Assembly (NCBI GenBank): GCA_039583615.1
Contig: JAVKSQ010000008.1
Span: 2,766 to 66,765 of the forward strand
Direction of reading: 5' to 3'
Source: Acidimicrobiales bacterium
GTDB taxonomy: Bacteria; Actinomycetota; Acidimicrobiia; Acidimicrobiales; QHCF01
DNA: 64,000 bases
Both the position numbers and the translations under genes were made by a program. This document shows, piece by piece, positions 2,704-56,569 of this stretch (position 1 is the first letter of the stretch; every line of letters starts with the position of its first letter). The notes under the pieces are model-generated. The model worked only from the letters and a program-made list of their open reading frames with translations, was not told where the DNA came from and searched no databases.

Positions 2704-3368
2704 GACTCCTCCAACAGGGCGCCGAAGGTGACCAGGCCCAAGGTGACATAGATCACGGCGAACACGCACAGCATCTCCAGCCAGCGCTCGCCGTCAGAGG
2801 GCACACCGGCCAGCCCGGCCTGCCAGGCCTTGGTGGCAGCCAGCAGGACGGGGGCCACGACCGGCATCAGCAGCAGCGGCAGCAGCGTCTCGCGTACCCG
2901 CAGACCGGCCGCCAGTGCGGCGTAGACGGTGCCGGCCGCGGCCAGGCCGGCGGTGGCAGCCAGGGAGGTGGCCACCAGGAGCAGGGCACCATGCAAGCGG
3001 GCGTCGTAGAGGACCACGGTGGCCCCGGCCAGGATCAGCTCCAGGACGAGCAGCTGGGCAGCCACCGCTCCTGCCTTGCCGAGGAAGATGCCGGCTGGAT
3101 CGAGCCCCGAGAGGCGCAGGCCGTCCCTGGCTGAGTCGGCTGCCTCCAGGGCGAAGCTGCGCTGGACCGCCAGTACCGCCGAGAACAGGACAGCCACCCA
3201 TAACAGGCCGGCCGTCGCCTGCGACAGCACCCGCCTGTCGGGGCCGAGGGCAAAGGCGAAGAGCACCAGGACGAGCACGGCGAAGGGCACCACCTGGTTG
3301 ACAGCCACCCGTGAACGGGCTTCGACCCTCAGGTCCTTGCCCGCCACCAGCAGGGCGTCACGCCACAT
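2700..3368 (-). CDS. ccmB: Heme exporter permease CcmB
   Basis: ORF 2700..3416 is polytopic and hydrophobic, with [20 protein letters not shown]... typical of a CcmB N-terminus, and lies between ccmA and ccmC. The start is either ATG 3368 (preferred) or ATG 3416. Confidence 0.8.
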   Translation of the reverse strand: MWRDALLVAGKDLRVEARSRVAVNQVVPFAVLVLVLFAFALGPDRRVLSQATAGLLWVAVLFSAVLAVQRSFALEAADSARDGLRLSGLDPAGIFLGKAGAVAAQLLVLELILAGATVVLYDARLHGALLLVATSLAATAGLAAAGTVYAALAAGLRVRETLLPLLLMPVVAPVLLAATKAWQAGLAGVPSDGERWLEMLCVFAVIYVTLGLVTFGALLEES

Positions 3369-4110
3369 GGGACCGCCCGGGAGGTGAGCCCGAGACACTG
3401 ACCCGCTCCCGGACAAGATGGCCGAGCGCCGGCCATCCGCCGTCCGCCAGGGCTCGTCCGCCCGGCGGGGCCTGGTCCAAGACCCGCCCGCCGGCCATGC
3501 TCACCCTCCGGTGGGCCAGGACACTGGCCCGAGCCGGCTCGTGAGAGGCCACTACCACCGCGGCGCCGGCCGCAGCCGCCTCCGCCACCATCTGGTCGAG
3601 GACATCTCGTCCGGACTGGTCGAGGCCGGCATGGGGCTCGTCGAGCAACCATAGAGCGGGAGCGCGGGCGGCGAGCACCGACAAGGCCACCCGCCGCCGC
3701 TGGCCCGAGGAGAGGGAACCCACCCTGGTTGAAGCCAGCCGGCCGGCCAGACCCAGTCGGTCAAGGACGGGTGCCACAGCACCGACCGGCACGCGGGCAG
3801 CCCTCAGGGCGAAGGTCAGGTTCTCGATGACGCTCAGGTCGTCGTAGAGGAAGGTAGCGTGACCCAGCATGCCGACGCTGCCCCGAATCGACCGACGGTC
3901 GTTTCGGAGATTGTGGCCGAGCACCTCGGCCTCGCCATCCACCACGGCCAGCAGCCCGGCACAAGCGCGTAGCAAGCTGGTCTTGCCGGCCCCGTTGGAG
4001 CCCTCGACCAGCACCACCTCACCGGACGAGACCTCCAGGTCGACGCCCGAGAGCACCGGGAAGCGCCCGGCCAGGGCGACGGCAGCACGGAAGTGGATGG
4101 CAGGGGCCAT
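3358..4110 (-). CDS. ccmA: Heme exporter ABC ATPase CcmA
   Basis: Walker [13 protein letters not shown] signature LSSGQRRRV and Walker B LWLLDEP. The start is ATG 4110 (MAPAIHF...). The 111 aa upstream of it in track ORF 3358..4443 (SACWVSAC...) are an antisense reading of the tandem repeat. Confidence 0.9.
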
Positions 4111-5368
4111 TTCGTTCGCCGGCCATGCTAGGAGGCCGGAGGACCAGAATTCCAAGCAGGCGGAGACCAAGCAGGCGGAGACCCAGCAGGCGGAGACCCA
4201 GCAGGCGGAGACCGAGCAGGCGCAGACCGAGCAGGCGGAGACCCAGCAGGCGGAGACCCAGCAGGCGGAGACCCAGCAGGCGGAGACCGAGCAGGCGGAG
4301 ACCCAGCAGGCGGAGACCCAGCAGGCGGAGACCGAGCAGGCGGAGACCGAGCAGGCGGAGACCCAGCAGGCGGAGACCGAGCAGGCGGAGACCGAGCAGG
4401 CGAAGCGTCGGGGTCGGCACCGCCGGCGGCGACCGCCGGTCAAAGGGCGCCGGAGGCCCGTCAGCCTGGGGAGGCGGGTGGTGGGCGGCGTGGGGCGGAC
4501 CCTCGTCGGCGCCGGCGTCCTCCTGTTGCTCTTCGTCGCCTACCAGCTGGCGGGGACCAACGTTGCCGAAGCCCACAGCCAGACCGCCCTGCGCCAGGCG
4601 TTCAGCCGCCAGCTCCATGCGCAACCTGCCACCACGGTCCCCGCCCCCGCCAGCACCTTGCCCGCGGCCAGCCCACCGGCGCCCCCCCTGCCCGGCCCGC
4701 CGCCTGCCGAGGGCACTCCGGTGGCCACCATGCACATCCCCAAGATCGGTCTGGACAAGGTGGTGATCCAAGGGGTCGGCACCGACGACCTGCGCCAGGC
4801 ACCAGGCCACTACCCGAGCACCTCCATGCTCGGCCAGCCCGGCAACGCCGCGGTGGCCGGCCATCGCACCACCTACGGGGCGCCCTTCTACCGGCTCGAC
4901 GAGCTGACCCAGGGAGACCCCATCTATGTCAACACCTCCCAGGGCGCCTTCGAGTACGACGTGGCCAAGACCACGATCGTCAACCCCTCCGACGTCTCGG
5001 TGCTCGATCCCACCCCCGGGGCCCAGCTCACCCTGACGACCTGCAACCCCCGTTTCAGTGCCGCCCAGCGCCTGGTGGTGGTAGCCGACCTGGTGAGCCG
5101 GCCGGCCCCCGCCACGGCCCAGGGGGCGCCAGCTACCCGCCGGGCCCCCCCGTCGCTCAGCCTGTCCGGACGGCAGGTCCCGCTGCTGGCGGTGGTGGCC
5201 TGGGGCATCGGGCTGGTCCTGGTGGCCCTGTTGGTGTGGCTGGTGGCCAGGAGCCGCTACACCCGCTGGCGCCGGGCCGTGGCCTACACAGTCGGTGCCC
5301 TGCCGTTCCTCGCCGTGCTCTTCTTCTTCTTCACCGCACTGAGCCCCCTCCTCCCGGCCCAGTACTGA
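4097..5368 (+). CDS. srtE: Class E-type sortase (transpeptidase) with a repeat-containing N-terminus; start uncertain
   Basis: Catalytic contexts: [11 protein letters not shown] (His), LTLTTCNP (TLxTC Cys), AAQRLVVVA (Arg). A TM helix ([16 protein letters not shown]) precedes the catalytic domain, and there are two further hydrophobic helices at the C-terminus. The only in-frame start upstream of the repeat is ATG 4097, which overlaps the ccmA start by 14 nt; the next candidates are GTG 4478/4481/4490. Confidence 0.8.
4154..4408. repeat. 15-bp tandem repeat, about 17 units, consensus (a/c/g)AGCAGGCGGAGACC
   Basis: Read directly: head-to-tail units from 4154. The only variation is in the first base (aag/cag/gag) plus one gcgGag>gcgCag change. 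No stop codons occur in at least 4 reading frames (track ORFs 3869+, 4125+, 3358-, 4019- all read through). Confidence 0.95.
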
Positions 5369-5411
5369 TACCCCCTTGTACGGACGGCCTCCACCGGTCA
5401 CACTGGCGAGC

Positions 5412-5693
5412 ATGATCGCACTCATCATCGTGTGGCTGGTGACCGGCCTCATCGTGGGGGCCCTCGGTCGACTGCTCGTCCCGGGCCCCAATCCTATGGG
5501 CATCCTCGCCACCGCCCTGGTGGGTCTGGGCGGGTCCCTCGTCGGCACGCTCATCGGGCGCTTGATCTTCGGCCCCGGGTACACCGCCGGGATCGTCCTG
5601 TCGGTCCTCGGTGCTGCCCTCCTGGTCTACGCCTTCCAGGGTCGAGGAGGGGGCCGAGCCCGGCGTCTCGGCGCCTGGGGGAGACGCATCTGA
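5412..5693 (+). CDS. GlsB/YeaQ/YmgE family (transglycosylase-associated) small membrane protein
   Basis: MIALIIVWLVTGLIVGALGRLLVPG...GILATALVGLGGSLVG is a Gly-rich three-helix pattern typical of this family. ATG 5412 lies in the frame of ORF 5376..5693. Confidence 0.7.
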   Translation: MIALIIVWLVTGLIVGALGRLLVPGPNPMGILATALVGLGGSLVGTLIGRLIFGPGYTAGIVLSVLGAALLVYAFQGRGGGRARRLGAWGRRI

Positions 5694-5746: not shown

Positions 5747-6769
5747 TCAGCCGGGGCAGGTGCGGGCCAGGAACCGCGCCAGAGCCTGGTAGTAGGCCAT
5801 CGGATCGGCCTGGTACTCGCCGCCGTGGCCCGCTCCCGGCACCGGTCGGTAGGTGACCAGGCGCGGCAGGGCGCGGGCGAAGTCGGCGGCCACCGACAGC
5901 GGGACTGCGGTGTCGGCGCCCGCCTGGAACAACAAGATGGGCACGTGCAGGCCGCCGGCATGGGCCACCTGGTCCAGCTCCGAGAAGTCCACCCCGGCCC
6001 GCAGGTGGATAGCCTCCTCCCCGAGGTCGCTGATCATCCAGGCCAGCGGGCCGGGCACTCCCCGGCGACGGGCCCCGTTGGTGAAGACGCCGCCCCAGTC
6101 CAGCACCGGTGAGTCCAGCACGACACCGCAGACCGACCCCGCCGGCGAGTGCCGGACGTCCTGGAGGACCATCTCCGCCCCCATGGACGAGCCCACCAGG
6201 GCTACTCGTCGAGCCCCCCGCCGGCGGGCATAGGCCACGGCGGCGGCCACGTCGTGCCACTCCGTCTGGCCCAGGTGGGTGTGTCCGGGCGGGCTCTCCG
6301 GTGGCGCCCCAGGGTCGCCCCGGTAGCTCACCAGCAGGGCTGGGAACCCCAGCTGGCGCAGCATGGGCAGGAGGTACTCGCCGTCCGCCAGAGTGGCGCC
6401 GTAGCCGTGCACGAACAGCACCCAGGTGGCCCGCCGCCCACCCGCCAGCCAGGCAGGCATCGCCCCCAGGGGGTCAGGGACCGCCTCCCGGGTCACGTCC
6501 GGTGGCGGCTCGGGCAGGCTGGCCGCACCGGTGCGGCCGACGGCCATCGATCCGTTGCGCAGGTCGAGCACCTGGCCCGAGAACCACCAGCCGAACCCGG
6601 CGGCCGCTCCGGCCAGCACGGTGGCCACCACCACCACCAGGACGACCAGTCGACGAGCCAGGTGACTCAGAGGCTGGCCGTCGCCTATCGCTGCTGGTGC
6701 TCGACCAGCTTGATGTCGGACTCCACCATGGCGGCCACCAGCCCGGCGAAGTCGACCTCGCGCTGCCAT
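5747..6769 (-). CDS. Membrane-anchored alpha/beta hydrolase (serine hydrolase)
   Basis: N-terminal TM helix [24 protein letters not shown] motif LFVHGYG, nucleophile elbow GSSMG, and C-terminal GAGHGG. ATG 6769 would overlap the end of gmd by 85 nt, so the true start is uncertain. Confidence 0.75.
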
Positions 6770-30228: not shown

Positions 30229-31691
30229 GCGCCGGGCTGCCCGGGGTCAGCCGGGCCCACCCCGAGTCGCTCGATCTGGCCGAGACGGTGGCGGCCGAGC
30301 TGGAGGCGGCGCGGCGGCGCTCGCTGGAGCTGCTCGATCCCTGCGACGATGCCACCCTGGTCGGCCAGCACTCCCCGCTGATGTCCCCGCTCGTGTGGGA
30401 CCTGGCCCACGTGGGCAACTACGAGGACCTCTGGCTGCTTCGAGCCCTCGGCGCCCAGGGAGTCGATCCATCGCTGGACGACACCTACGACGCCTTTCGC
30501 CATCCCCGTTCGGACCGGCGGGCGCTGGCCCTGATGGGCCCGGCGGCAGCCCGGTCCTACATCGCCAGCGTCCGGGGCCGGGTGCTCGACCAGCTCTCCG
30601 GGACCGATCTGGACCCCGGGCGACCGGCCGGTGACCTGCTGGCCGACGCCTTCGTCTACGGCATGGTCGTCCAGCACGAGCACCAGCACGACGAGACCAT
30701 GCTGGCCGCCCTCCAGCTGTTGGAGGGCTCCCGCCCACTCCTTGGACGCAGTGCCCCCGAAGAGCGCGCCGCAGGGTCCAAAGAACGCCGCCAGCCGCCA
30801 GGCGGCCACCAGGCCAGCCCCCCGGCCCGGCACGGCGAGGTGCGGGTGGACGGGGAGGTGCGGGTGGACGGGGAGGTGCGGGTGGACGGGGAGGTGCGGG
30901 TGGACGGCGAGGTGCGGGTGGACGGCGGGGCCTTCACGATGGGGACCAGCTGGCATCCGTGGGCGTACGACAACGAGCGCCCAGCCCACCAGGTGGAGCT
31001 GCGACCGTACTGGATCGACACCTATCCGGTGACCAACCGGGGCTGGCTGGAGTTCGTGGAGGCGGGGGGCTACCAGCAGGCCCGCTGGTGGAGCGCCGAG
31101 GGCTGGTCGTGGCGGCAGGAGGCGGCCCTTGAGCACCCCCAGCTCTGGCGGAGGGAAGGGGCCTCGTCCTGGTCGCGGCGCTGGTTCGCCCGGCAGGAGG
31201 ACCTGCCCCTCGACCAGCCGGCCGTCCACGTCTGCTGGCACGAGGCGGATGCCTATGCCCGCTGGCGAGGCAAGCGCCTGCCGACGGAGGCCGAGTGGGA
31301 GAAGGCGGCCACCTGGGACCCCGCCTCTGGGGCCAAGCGGCGCTGGCCGTGGGGGGAGGCCGAGCCGACGCCGGACCTGGCCAACCTGGGCCAGCGCCAG
31401 TGGCAGCCGGCACCCGTCGGATCCTGTCCGCAAGGGGCCAGCGCCTATGGCGCCCAGCAGATGGTCGGCGACGTGTGGGAGTGGACCGCCTCGGACTTCG
31501 GGCCCTACCCGGGCTTCGCCTCGTTCCCCTACCGGCAGTACTCGGAGGTCTTCTTCGGCTCGCAGCACAAGGTGCTCAGGGGTGGCTCGTGGGCCACCTG
31601 GCCCGTGGCCGCCCGGCCGACCTTCCGCAACTGGGACTACCCGGTCCGCCGCCAGATCTTCGCCGGCCTGCGCTGTGCCAGGGACGCCTGA
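30219..31691 (+). CDS. egtB: Hercynine oxygenase / sulfoxide synthase EgtB (DinB-like + FGE-sulfatase-like domains)
   Basis: DinB-type His motifs (WDLAHVGNYEDLW, VVQHEHQHDETM) and an FGE-like domain (GGAFTMGT...YWIDTYPVTN...RLPTEAEWEKAA...VWEWTASDF...VLRGGSWAT). It contains an internal 5 x 18-bp repeat. Confidence 0.9.
   Translation: MGLSAGLPGVSRAHPESLDLAETVAAELEAARRRSLELLDPCDDATLVGQHSPLMSPLVWDLAHVGNYEDLWLLRALGAQGVDPSLDDTYDAFRHPRSDRRALALMGPAAARSYIASVRGRVLDQLSGTDLDPGRPAGDLLADAFVYGMVVQHEHQHDETMLAALQLLEGSRPLLGRSAPEERAAGSKERRQPPGGHQASPPARHGEVRVDGEVRVDGEVRVDGEVRVDGEVRVDGGAFTMGTSWHPWAYDNERPAHQVELRPYWIDTYPVTNRGWLEFVEAGGYQQARWWSAEGWSWRQEAALEHPQLWRREGASSWSRRWFARQEDLPLDQPAVHVCWHEADAYARWRGKRLPTEAEWEKAATWDPASGAKRRWPWGEAEPTPDLANLGQRQWQPAPVGSCPQGASAYGAQQMVGDVWEWTASDFGPYPGFASFPYRQYSEVFFGSQHKVLRGGSWATWPVAARPTFRNWDYPVRRQIFAGLRCARDA
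30834..30923 (+). repeat. 18-bp tandem repeat x5 inside egtB (GG[C/G]GAGGTGCGGGTGGAC = GEVRVD)
   Basis: Read directly and in frame with egtB. The outer units use GGC and the three inner units GGG, a synonymous difference. Confidence 0.95.
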
Positions 31692-39588: not shown

Positions 39589-40100
39589 GGGCCGGCGGAG
39601 GGCGGCCGGGCCCTGCCGGGGGAGGACGGCCGGGCCCTGCCGGGGGACGGCGGCCGGGCCCTGCCGGGGGAGGGCCAGCCGGGGCGCCCCGGAGGCGCCC
39701 GCTGGTCAAGGCATTGGCCGGCGGGCTGGCTCTGGCCGGGGTGGCCGGCGGGTGCACGTCGGCTCACAACTCCCTCGGCACCGGCTCCAGCCCGTGCTTC
39801 TCGGCGCTGCCGGCAGCCGAGACAGACGTCCACCACCAGGGCACGCTGCTCGGCATCCGGCGCCTGCCGGTGGCCAAGCTGGGTCACCGCCTGGCTCAGC
39901 GGGTGGGCCCGGTGACGCCTGGCGAGCTGGTGTGCGTGGCTGCCTTCCGGGACCGCTACCAGCCCGGCTCGGTGGACCACCAGGTGCGCCCGGTCGCCGG
40001 GCCCTACGCCACCGTGGTGGTGACCAGCCGGGGCAGTCGCCAGACGGTGGTGGCGGCGTTCGTCTCCCACCGGCTGCCCCTGCGATTTCGCCACCTGTGA
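39585..40100 (+). CDS. Hypothetical lipoprotein with a repeat-containing pre-signal region
   Basis: GTG 39585 overlaps the upstream stop (GTGA). RRRPLVKALAGGLALAGVAGGC is a lipobox-like signal. No motif recognised in the mature part. Confidence 0.5.
   Translation: MRAGGGRPGPAGGGRPGPAGGRRPGPAGGGPAGAPRRRPLVKALAGGLALAGVAGGCTSAHNSLGTGSSPCFSALPAAETDVHHQGTLLGIRRLPVAKLGHRLAQRVGPVTPGELVCVAAFRDRYQPGSVDHQVRPVAGPYATVVVTSRGSRQTVVAAFVSHRLPLRFRHL
39597..39668 (+). repeat. 24-bp tandem repeat x3 (GGA-GGN/CGG-CGGCCGGGCCCTGCCGGG = GGRPGPAG)
   Basis: Read directly; CCCT recurs at 39611, 39635 and 39659. It is in frame with the lipoprotein ORF. Confidence 0.9.
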
Positions 40101-47536: not shown

Positions 47537-49588
47537 ATGGAGAGGCTGGACCGTGTGGAGCGGCTCACCAACCTGGTGCTGGTCCTGCTGGACACCCGCC
47601 GGCCGCTCACCCTGGTGGAGATCGCCGGGCAGGTGGCCGGCTACCCGAGCGGCCGTCAGGCTGCCCGCCAGGCGTTCGAACGGGACAAGCGGGTGCTTCG
47701 CGAGGAGGGGATCCCCATCTCGATGGAGAGCCGGCCGGGCGAGGAGGCGGTCGGCTACCGCATCCGAGCCGAGGACTACTACCTGCCCGACCTTCACCTC
47801 AGTCCTGAGGAGCAGTTTGCCCTCAACCTGGCCGTGGCCGGCGTCCACCTTGACGATGCTAGTGGCCGGGCTGCGCTGGTGAAGCTCGGATCGACCGAGC
47901 GCGACCCGGCTCCGGCGATGGCCACCCTGCCGTCACTGCCGCAGCTGGGCGTGCTCCACCGGGCCATGCAGGAGCAGTGCCTGGTCGCCTTCTCCTACCC
48001 TGGTCCGCAGGGGCCCAGGCCGAGGGAGGTCGAGCCGTACGGTCTGTTGTTCCGCCAGGGCTTCTGGTACCTGGTGGGCCGCGACCGGGAGCGGTCGGCC
48101 CTGCGGACCTTCCGGGTGGACCGCATGGAGAGCGCTCCGAGCGTGGGGTCACCGGCCGCCTTCGTTCCCCCTGCCGAGTTCGATCCCTCTACCGCCCTGG
48201 GCAAGCCGTGGCGGCTGGGCGGAGGCGAGGCGGTGGCCGCCACGGTGTCGATCGACCCCTTGCTCGCCCACCAGGTGACGGCCGAGCTGGGGCAGTCGGC
48301 CGTGCGGGACCAGTTGGCCGACGGCTCGGTGGTGGTCGAGCTGCAGGTTACCAACGAGGGGGCCTTCCGGTCGTGGGTGCTCGGCCTGCTCGACCACGCG
48401 GTGGTGCTCGAACCCCCCGAGCTGCGCAAGTCGATGATCACCTGGCTGGAGGCAGTGGCTTCCGGGCCTTCACCGGCTTCCGGGCCTTCGCCGGCTTCCG
48501 GGCCTTCACCGGCTTCCGGGCCTTCACCGGCTTCCGGGCCTTCGCCGGCTGGGGACGGCCGTCGGGCGAGCATCCCCGCCAGGCAGACGCAGACCCGCCC
48601 GGGCGGCGGCGAGGAGGCCCGGGCGGGGGCGAGCGGGCCGGCCGGGACCGGCCGGCGTCCGGACGCCGCCGAGCGCCTGCGCTGCCTGCTGGCCGTCCTG
48701 CCCTGGCTGGCCAGCCGGGGCGGGGCACCGATCGCCGAGGTGGCCGAGCGCTTCGGTCTTCCCGAGAGGGAGGTGGTGGCCCTGCTGGAGCTGGCCGCCT
48801 GCTGCGGCCTTCCCCCCTACTCCCCCGACCAGCTGATCGAGCTGATCGTCTCCGACGACTGGGTGACCGCCAATCTCGGACCCCACCTGTCGAGGCCCCA
48901 GCGCCTCAGCGCCACCGAGGGCTTCACCCTGGCCGCCTCCGCCCGGGCCATCCTGGCCGTGCCGGGATCGGATCCGAACGGAGCCCTCTCCCGCGCCCTG
49001 ACCAAGCTGGAGGCAGTGCTGGGCGAGCACCTGGCGGTGGCGGTCGACCTGGACGAGCCCCCGCTGCTGGCCACCGTGCGCCAGGCCATGGCGGCTGGCG
49101 AGGCCCTCGAGCTGGAGTACTACTCGGCATCGCGTGACGAGTTGACCACCCGTCGGGTCGATCCCTGGGCGACGTTCACCGAGGGGGGTCACTGGTACCT
49201 CGACGGCTGGTGCCACCTGGCTGGGGGCATGCGCCACTTCCGCGTGGACAGGGCCCGGGCCGCCCGGCTGGCCGGTCCCCCATCGGCGACCATCCCGCCA
49301 GGGGAAGGGCCGGGCGAGCCGCCTCGGCTGTTCGCCCCGGGGCCGGGGGCAACCCTCGCCCGCCTGGCCATCCCCGCTTCGGCCCGCTGGGTGGTCGAGA
49401 CCTACCCGACCGAGGACGTGAGGGAGGGCGCCGACGGCCGCTTGGAGGTGACCCTGGCGGTGGGGGGGACGGCCTGGCTGGAGCGCCTGTTGCTCCGCCT
49501 GGGGCCGGCGGCCGAGGTCCTGGAGCCGGGTGACCTTGCCGACCTCGCCCGCCGGGCGGCGGGCCGGCTCCTGGCCCGCTACCGGTGA
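47537..49588 (+). CDS. pafBC: Fused PafB-PafC-like regulator (two HTH-WYL-WCX modules in one polypeptide)
   Basis: Module 1: MERLDRVERLTNLVLVLL... (wHTH) ... EPYGLLFRQGFWYLVGRD (WYL). A linker with 5x SGPSPA follows. Module 2: AERLRCLLAVLPWLASRGG... (wHTH) ... DPWATFTEGGHWYLDGWC (WYL). Start at ATG 47537; the upstream part of ORF 46526..49588 is antisense to ctaG. Confidence 0.75.
   Translation: MERLDRVERLTNLVLVLLDTRRPLTLVEIAGQVAGYPSGRQAARQAFERDKRVLREEGIPISMESRPGEEAVGYRIRAEDYYLPDLHLSPEEQFALNLAVAGVHLDDASGRAALVKLGSTERDPAPAMATLPSLPQLGVLHRAMQEQCLVAFSYPGPQGPRPREVEPYGLLFRQGFWYLVGRDRERSALRTFRVDRMESAPSVGSPAAFVPPAEFDPSTALGKPWRLGGGEAVAATVSIDPLLAHQVTAELGQSAVRDQLADGSVVVELQVTNEGAFRSWVLGLLDHAVVLEPPELRKSMITWLEAVASGPSPASGPSPASGPSPASGPSPASGPSPAGDGRRASIPARQTQTRPGGGEEARAGASGPAGTGRRPDAAERLRCLLAVLPWLASRGGAPIAEVAERFGLPEREVVALLELAACCGLPPYSPDQLIELIVSDDWVTANLGPHLSRPQRLSATEGFTLAASARAILAVPGSDPNGALSRALTKLEAVLGEHLAVAVDLDEPPLLATVRQAMAAGEALELEYYSASRDELTTRRVDPWATFTEGGHWYLDGWCHLAGGMRHFRVDRARAARLAGPPSATIPPGEGPGEPPRLFAPGPGATLARLAIPASARWVVETYPTEDVREGADGRLEVTLAVGGTAWLERLLLRLGPAAEVLEPGDLADLARRAAGRLLARYR
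48461..48550 (+). repeat. 18-bp tandem repeat x5 in the PafBC inter-module linker (TCCGGGCCTTC[A/G]CCGGCT = SGPSPA)
   Basis: Read directly and in frame. The units differ only at a synonymous Ser codon (TCA/TCG). Confidence 0.95.
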
Positions 49589-56442: not shown

Positions 56443-56510
56443 GGCGGGCCGGGTCGACCGGCTGGCGGGCCGGGTCGACCGGCTGGCGGGCCGGGTCGAC
56501 CGGCTGGCAG
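56443..56510 (+). repeat. 21-bp tandem repeat x3 (GGCGGGCCGGGTCGACCGGCT), each unit containing the palindrome GGTCGACC, upstream of amt
   Basis: Read directly. The palindromes lie at 56452-59, 56473-80 and 56494-501. No ATG/GTG/TTG occurs in the amt frame between the hydrolase stop and GTG 56570, so the array is untranslated. Confidence 0.9.
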
Positions 56511-56569
56511 GCCTGGCGGCCCGGCCCCTAGCCTCGTCGCCCGATGGGCGCGCCGGGGCCAGCCAACCA

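Follow-up and report, generated by a model that had tools for sequence, protein, structure and literature searches.

The window analysed here is a 64,000-nucleotide (nt) stretch of contig JAVKSQ010000008.1 from an Acidimicrobiales bacterium (assembly GCA_039583615.1), in which a tandem array of 15-base-pair (bp) units lies between ccmA, a heme exporter ATPase gene, and a divergently oriented gene for a class E sortase. We find that this array is probably a lineage-specific, in-frame expansion within a translated N-terminal cytoplasmic extension of the sortase. In the mechanism that we propose, a small Acidimicrobiales clade would have lost the ancestral sortase promoter together with the start codon just before the membrane helix, and transcription and translation would now begin at a TAGCGT-N8-ATG signature (ATG 3869) positioned antisense within the divergent ccmA. 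The resulting frame would cross the ccmA start, the ccmA promoter, the array and an Arg-rich patch before entering the membrane helix. Within it, the array would add about 83 residues of (K/Q/E)QAET with a net charge of -20, predicted to form one long helix, directly before a patch with a net charge of +14, and the outcome would be an acidic-then-basic cytoplasmic tail like that of Streptomyces SrtE1. Coordinates of all features are collected in Table 1.

Tandem Repeats Finder (TRF) reported the array at positions 4155-4402 with a period of 15, 16.5 copies, 95% matches, no indels and a score of 433, and the 14-mer AGCAGGCGGAGACC occurs 16 times head to tail (15 exact occurrences and one with a single mismatch). 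None of 100 shuffled sequences reached 17 matches of this 14-mer, and the only other match in the 64 kilobases (kb) of the window was a single chance occurrence with two mismatches. An earlier note on this DNA, made from the sequence alone, had counted 17 copies at 4154-4408. Both TRF and the motif count bear out the array, but it is better described as 16 full units of the form (A/C/G)AGCAGGCGGAGACC followed by a degenerate seventeenth, GAGCAGGCGAAGCGT, which agrees with the repeat at only 11 of 15 positions. The first position of the unit varies (A in two units, C in eight and G in seven), and the sole other variation is one G>C change at position 10 of unit 5. From 4184 to 4408, the unit first bases are ordered CCGG / CCCG / CCGG / CGG; this order hints at a four-unit (60-bp) higher-order period, and the array may have grown by duplication of multi-unit blocks. 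No T is found on the forward (+) strand of the 16 full units, and the sole T in 4154-4408 is the last base of the seventeenth. Because the + strand is without T, the array is stop-free in all six frames, where the earlier note had counted at least four, and its openness is therefore uninformative about coding; an open frame through the array was rejected as coding evidence for this reason.

The closest sortases, 67-72% identical to that of the window, come from three related lineages of uncultured Acidimicrobiales, designated L001/L096 (L096 being about 2% diverged from L001), L081, and L082/L083 together with twelve near-identical contigs. These lineages share the layout of the window, in which the sortase diverges from a ccmC-ccmB-ccmA cluster on the opposite strand, and none of them has the array. 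Their sortase frame reads (M)...GHARRPE(D/A)(Q/N)NSK, followed by about 24 Arg-rich residues and then the helix. The array of the window is inserted exactly between a conserved AAG and the basic region, which follow one another directly in the relatives. With the array left out, the tail from the ccmA-start boundary to the RR motif spans 40 codons in the window, L081 and L082 and 38 codons in L001, and the comparison contains only two indels, of 3 nt each. The earlier note had proposed checking whether sortase E orthologues carry similar low-complexity tails, and a tandem-repeat scan of 83 related loci yielded no comparable array upstream of the sortase. In addition, no second sequence of the window species was found in any collection searched, an exact look-up of the 423-amino-acid (aa) annotated product on other contigs gave no match, a protein database search with the tail only gave no match, and a metagenome scan with the conserved block returned the L082 lineage only, which is arrayless.

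Codon usage distinguishes the sortase frame from the others. The 15-bp unit is a multiple of three, and the array is in frame with the open reading frame (ORF) 3869-5368, in which it scores a codon log-odds of +0.74 bit per codon, with 0.58 for the sortase core; the other five frames of the array score +0.41, -0.08, -1.10, -1.19 and -2.03 bit per codon. The five codons of the unit score +0.74 to +0.86 bit per codon in the sortase frame, and all other frames are lower. The equivalent gap in another related locus, L034, provides a contrast, as it is non-coding and holds a repeat with a 14-bp unit and a TGA, compared with the 15-bp, stop-free array of the window.

Evidence for translation of the tail also comes from the arrayless relatives. 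From the ccmA boundary to halfway through the membrane helix, neither L001 nor L096 has an in-frame ATG, GTG or TTG, and since there is no other usable start, the tail should be translated in that lineage. The ratio of non-synonymous to synonymous differences (pN/pS) in the tail is 0.59-0.85 in the sortase frame, compared with 1.4-3.4 and 0.67-1.34 in the other two frames (core, 0.34-0.52), and where L096 and L001 differ in the tail, at two sites, the change is synonymous each time. The strongly basic stretch that the earlier note had pointed to before the membrane helix proved to be a real and selected feature: in all four lineages the patch holds 8-13 Arg or Lys residues and no Asp or Glu at only 54-75% nucleotide identity, with a pN/pS of 0.58-0.93 in the sortase frame.

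To place the start of this frame, the sortase upstream region was compared with 13 outgroup loci that also have a divergent ccmA. Each outgroup gap contains one + strand TANNNT hexamer with an in-frame start after it, such that the ATG or GTG lies 6-11 nt after the hexamer and 4-12 codons before the sortase core (56 codons in L002), and these starts fit the family N-terminus M(S/D/A)(L/V)RR...G.GR. In all six sequences of the window's clade, no such + strand hexamer is present in the gap, and the former start-codon position now reads GTC, ACC, ACC or ATC, suggesting that the ancestral sortase promoter and start codon have been lost. What all six share is a TAGCGT-N8-ATG on the antisense strand of ccmA, 250 nt in from the start of that gene. 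Its ATG is in the sortase frame, and no stop intervenes before the core, which is reached after 118-120 codons in the relatives and after 203 in the window. The outgroups have no TAGCGT at this position.

The hexamer is rare enough for its placement to be informative. Between a point 400 nt inside ccmA and the sortase core, the + strand of the window has no TANNNT other than this TAGCGT. Gene interiors contain 0.37 TANNNT per kb in sense and 0.18 in antisense orientation, compared with 2.8 expected from base composition, and are thus 8-15 times poorer in the motif; the 27 kb of gene interior sampled have just five antisense copies, of which the ccmA copy alone precedes a start codon. Across the window, a TANNNT lies 5-12 nt upstream of one of 696 internal in-frame start-like codons as opposed to about 9 of 32 ORF 5' ends, which suggests that this genome has many leaderless or short-leader genes. 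Because the gap of the clade is without the hexamer, the TAGCGT-N8-ATG is present in six of six sequences and the motif is rare, we infer a promoter inside ccmA for the sortase of the clade, and translation in the window most likely begins at ATG 3869 to give a 499-aa product. This ATG lies 242 nt inside ccmA, and the two frames overlap over 3869-4110 and share third codon positions. The overlapped frame is open in all six clade sequences and equally so in outgroups of the same phase, and with shared third positions this openness has no power to reveal selection on both frames. Depending on the start, the in-frame extension before the membrane helix would comprise 203 codons from ATG 3869, 127 from ATG 4097 or practically none from GTG 4478.

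ATG 4097 is the start given in the public record, and the L001 lineage is annotated likewise by NCBI (345 aa). The earlier note had considered this codon as one of two possible sortase starts, observing correctly that it overlaps the divergent ccmA start codon (4110..4108) by 14 nt. That the array is coding but translated from this annotated ATG, to give the 423-aa product, is unlikely in our estimation. Every clade member does have an ATG within 12 nt of the ccmA start, but the position is not conserved, as the window has the -12 site only, L081 and L082 have the CATG site only (with ACG at 4097) and L001 has both, and these ATGs are by-products of the Ala-Ile codons of ccmA and of its own start codon. 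Moreover, no Shine-Dalgarno (SD) site and no -10 hexamer lie upstream of ATG 4097. By the spacing that holds in the family, with the start 6-11 nt after a -10 hexamer, the start indicated is 3869 and not 4097, and the promoter and start signature conserved in the clade indicates the same.

The location of the ccmA promoter bears on whether the array could instead be regulatory DNA. All 18 loci in which ccmA is divergent have a TANNNT hexamer 10-15 nt ahead of the ccmA ATG (in L001 it reads TACGAT, with only N positions altered), and a cTTGG(a/t) element about 19 nt upstream of this -10 is kept in nearly all 18. From these signals, the ccmA leader would be only a few nt long and without an SD site. 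The complete ccmA promoter thus separates the ccmA start from the array, and the earlier note's alternative of a variable spacer in a shared divergent promoter region does not fit this arrangement. As the array is without T on the + strand, no TANNNT -10 is possible in it on either strand, and no TA dinucleotide occurs between the array and the membrane helix. A spacer function between two promoters is therefore improbable. Regulators can bind direct repeats that lie in promoter regions, and the array adjoins the -35 hexamer of ccmA, so that a non-coding role as a variable spacer or a row of binding sites tuning the divergent promoters was considered. We regard this as the least probable of all readings, since the array is absent from all relatives despite their common promoter layout, its unit is without internal symmetry, it cannot hold a -10 element, the ccmA promoter is complete without it, and a 15-bp period is not a whole number of helical turns. 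Searches of 3800-4800 against Rfam found no RNA family, and a generic scan for sigma-70 promoters and terminators found no match.

Several observations count against a translated array with a start at ATG 3869. All differences between units in the sortase frame are non-synonymous (K/Q/E and E>Q), as the earlier note had claimed and as the in-register layout from 4154 confirms. The non-repeat parts of the tail score -0.03 and -0.41 bit per codon and contain rare AGG/AGA codons, and the two tail differences between L082 and L083 are both non-synonymous. A conserved block of 12 residues in the tail, together with a rare AAT codon (7 uses, compared with 109 for AAC) retained at the ccmA -35 in all four lineages, can be attributed to the ccmA promoter that lies there, and the block was rejected as coding evidence for that reason. 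The conservation of TAGCGT-ATG is partly imposed by the codons of ccmA itself, and the evidence for the sortase start consists of motifs and sequence comparison. Finally, the array is known from one genome, and its copy number is possibly an assembly estimate. It is nevertheless very improbable that the copy number or the array as a whole is an artefact of this metagenome-assembled contig. The array does come from a single source contig, and a 255-bp near-perfect repeat exceeds typical short-read length, but the A, C and G variants follow one another irregularly and one unit has a G>C change, a pattern that resembles real sequence and not a collapsed or looped graph path, and the contig continues normally on both sides.

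Further points against the longer frame come from a candidate internal start. A GGGGAGG at 4467-4473 lies 4 and 7 nt before two GTGs, those at 4478 and 4481; the earlier note had considered a start at GTG 4478-4490, and GTG codons are indeed present at 4478, 4481 and 4490. Only 15 of 448 internal in-frame start-like codons in the window (3.3%) are preceded by GGAGG, about one third of the window's genes use an SD-like site, and equally short N-termini are annotated in the family (MVSGLGRVLIG in protein P0006 and MGRVLAG in P0020). The GGGGAGG is specific to the window, being absent in L001, L081 and L082 (L001 reads AGC AGG CGG CTC CTC there). The sortase might accordingly be made only from GTG 4478 or 4481, with the upstream array and all that precedes it as an untranslated leader, the relic of a tail that has become dispensable and is free to expand, a reading with which the uniformly non-synonymous unit variants would also agree. 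We consider this rather unlikely. The frame remains unbroken between 3869 and the helix, the length of the unit is a multiple of three, and its codons are those preferred by the genome in exactly the sortase frame. The basic patch shows no decay, and some of its differences from L001 are synonymous Arg changes. Additionally, no promoter-like hexamer lies in 3861-4478, so the region would be transcribed anyway with a 5'-proximal ATG available, and a start at GTG 4478 or 4481 leaves one Arg before the helix, where most relatives have RR plus R. A short isoform from GTG 4478 or 4481 could be made alongside the longer product.

The sequences themselves establish the array, its fit to the sortase frame, the promoter and start motifs and the conserved composition of the tail, whereas the sites of transcription and translation initiation and any role of the acidic helix are interpretations. 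On balance, the array-coding reading is favoured with fair confidence. Of the two alternatives raised in the earlier note, the coding tail is thus the better supported, although with the qualifications that the array does not lie between promoters and that ATG 4097 is probably not the start.

Table 1. Features at the ccmA-sortase locus (positions within the 64,000-nt window; residue numbers of the sortase refer to the 423-aa form)
Feature	Position	Strand	Remark
Sortase ORF in its longest version (499 aa), for a class E sortase with a putative cytoplasmic extension of about 200 aa	3869..5368	+	Inferred leaderless or short-leader start
TAGCGT, candidate sortase -10, inside ccmA on the antisense strand	3855..3860	+	Identical in 6 of 6 clade sequences
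ATG 4097, start in public annotation (423-aa product P0001, NCBI)	4097..4099	+	Probably an internal Met
15-bp repeat array, 16 full units (A/C/G)AGCAGGCGGAGACC	4154..4393	+	Encodes (K/Q/E)QAET in the sortase frame
Degenerate 17th unit GAGCAGGCGAAGCGT	4394..4408	+	Reads EQAKR; runs into the ancestral flank
Arg-rich membrane-adjacent patch, 25 residues, net +14	4403..4477	+	No acidic residue in any of the four lineages
GGGGAGG then GTG GTG (4478, 4481), candidate internal ribosome-binding site and start	4467..4483	+	Window-specific
N-terminal membrane helix (signal anchor)	4499..4558	+	Class E profile begins here; AlphaFold2 helix from residue 124
Sortase catalytic domain (His256, Cys316, Arg325)	4730..5095	+	Pfam PF04203, E = 4.6e-36
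Two C-terminal membrane helices	5183..5350	+	Kept in the sortase family; AlphaFold2 helices 363-386 and 390-418
ccmA (heme exporter ATPase)	3358..4110	-	TIGR01189, 140.1 bits (cut-off 131.6)
ccmA promoter -10, TAGCAT, 14 nt upstream of the ccmA ATG	4125..4130	-	TANNNT in 18 of 18 loci
ccmA promoter -35-like TTGGAA, takes in the first two bases of array unit 1	4150..4155	-	cTTGG(a/t) conservation

The assignment of the enzyme to class E is based on the NCBIfam model class_E_sortase (NF033747), which it matched with 181.5 bits against a cut-off of 160, while the models for class D, C, F and A sortases all scored below their own cut-offs. Across 26 sequences, H256, C316 (in TLxTC) and R325 are invariant, as are the membrane-helix residues G133, G140, F146 and Y149, and the nearest solved structures are 5GO5 and 5CUW (SrtE1). 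The family also keeps its C-terminus as LFFFFxxxSPLLPA, after the two extra membrane helices. Directly after the N-terminal membrane helix, an A-E-A (AXA-like) motif is found at 4565-4573 (+); its E158 is invariant, and the consensus among relatives is AEA. In Actinomyces oris SrtA, such an AXA-like site is cut by signal peptidase unless SafA protects it. Cleavage at the A-E-A, should it occur, would take off the whole tail and leave the enzyme anchored through its C-terminal helices. A Bifidobacterium dentium sortase has a SafA-like domain fused at its C-terminus (PMC9282373), and no FPW motif is visible here. A small three-helix membrane protein is encoded at 5376-5693 (+), directly 3' of the sortase, and has no Pfam match at E<0.01; its position in L001 and L082 is taken by an epimerase gene.

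The translated array would be composed of Q26, E22, A17, T16 and K2. In the AlphaFold prediction for the 423-aa form, residues 17-105 make up a single helix with a predicted local distance difference test score (pLDDT) of about 80-93, although high confidence on simple repeats needs caution; a disordered basic linker connects this helix to the membrane helix. The array cannot work as an on/off switch, since the frame is kept whatever the copy number. On this model, the array may be a tolerated, possibly useful acidic helical spacer or interaction module, for which the basic patch or other proteins would be candidate partners.

On the other side of the array, the assignment of ccmA is supported by its profile, of which position 13 aligns at residue 17, by tblastn alignments of CcmA with all relatives that start at residue 1, and by the adjoining genes for CcmB and a cytochrome c assembly protein on the same strand, as in a ccmC-ccmB-ccmA operon. 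Two further frames through the array were considered and rejected. The first would extend CcmA at its N-terminus through the array (ORF 3358-4443, reading VSAC[W/S/L]), yet the CcmA proteins of the relatives start with MA(P/A)A(I/V)HF, the CcmA profile begins at the usual start, and the extension frame has a codon score of about 0. The second, reading SRRRP (ORF 4125-4766), scores -1.19 bit per codon with rare AGG/AGA codons.

The gap between ccmA and the sortase is also variable in other loci. L034 contains, at 5949-6008, a 14-bp repeat of 4.4 copies (GAGGCGCTGACCCG) with a TGA in each unit, in its non-coding gap between ccmA and the sortase promoter. A Pro/Gly/Ser-rich sortase tail of 56 codons is found at 5869-6036 in L002, starting 6 nt after a TACCTT hexamer, and a 510-nt gap at 5557-6066 in L065 holds an acidic, Pro-rich open frame of 170 codons that leads into a basic patch, with no recognisable -10. 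As judged from these sequences, L002 and L065 appear to have lengthened the sortase tail independently. Within the window itself, four other tandem arrays were detected, at 30832-30925 and 48457-48550 (both 18 bp x 5.2), at 39591-39683 (24 bp x 3.8) and at 56443-56513 (21 bp x 3.4). Their units are all multiples of three, which suggests that in-frame coding repeats are common in this genome.

For this single orthologue, the lengths in public gene calls are 283, 289, 317, 343, 345, 351 and 423 aa (P0002-P0004, P0132-P0135 and the window), and the 283- and 289-aa calls, from the L001/L096 lineage, begin inside the membrane helix. These divergent lengths and truncated calls apparently arise because gene callers disallow divergent 5' overlaps. 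For annotation of the sortase start, 19 of 20 loci are resolved simply by looking for a start codon after a -10 hexamer.

The array alone is of modest novelty, and the clade-specific relocation of the start into the ccmA antisense strand is the more interesting lead. We tentatively put forward, as a possibility only, that the extension of about 200 residues was built nearly from scratch in three steps, converging on the layout of SrtE1 and coupling sortase and ccm antagonistically. The promoter and start would first have shifted 240 nt into ccmA, so that the first 80 or so residues were overprinted on the ccmA antisense strand; former intergenic DNA would then have become the Arg-rich patch; and the 15-bp unit would finally have expanded into the 83-residue acidic helix, in the window genome only. 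If this is true, a head-to-head overlap of about 250 nt would arise between the transcripts of sortase and ccm, with antagonistic coupling of their expression, and the locus would be a compact case of a membrane enzyme gaining a cytoplasmic domain through relocation of its start followed by repeat expansion. It would also be a natural analogue of the poorly understood cytoplasmic extension of SrtE1.

In Streptomyces coelicolor SrtE1, the cytoplasmic extension is 100-200 aa long and acidic, then basic (Kattke et al. 2016, PMC5148588), and deletion of its acidic part (residues 15-79) abolishes function in vivo, whereas the basic patch is dispensable (PMC5148588). The window sortase, also a class E enzyme, would be like SrtE1 in having a long cytoplasmic segment in which an acidic region and then a basic patch precede a single N-terminal helix. 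It differs in that its acidic part is a near-perfect tandem repeat found in one genome, with only a basic tail in the closest relatives, and in that the extension would be partly built on the ccmA antisense strand; the likeness is one of layout, and none of sequence was seen or would be expected. The array likewise resembles the coding minisatellites, or variable-number tandem repeats (VNTRs), of bacterial envelope proteins in having a unit that is a multiple of three, high identity between units and a place in a low-complexity segment that is probably disordered or helical, and as in VNTRs, a change in copy number here would alter protein length without switching the gene off. Unlike envelope VNTRs, it lies in the cytoplasmic tail of an enzyme and not in a surface-exposed domain. 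Leaderless and short-leader genes with a TANNNT -10 a few nt before the start are found in actinobacteria such as Mycobacterium, Streptomyces and Corynebacterium. The sortase genes share this arrangement, as a TANNNT precedes the start by 6-11 nt in the 13 outgroups and precedes the ATG that corresponds to 3869 by 8 nt in the clade, but the candidate promoter of the clade differs in lying inside, and antisense to, a conserved neighbour. Finally, the 242-nt overlap with ccmA on opposite strands, in the least-constraining phase with shared third positions, would be like that of antisense overlapping genes, or overprinting. It differs in that the overlapped frame is the usual open "shadow" frame of a high-GC gene, which is open in outgroups of the same phase as well.

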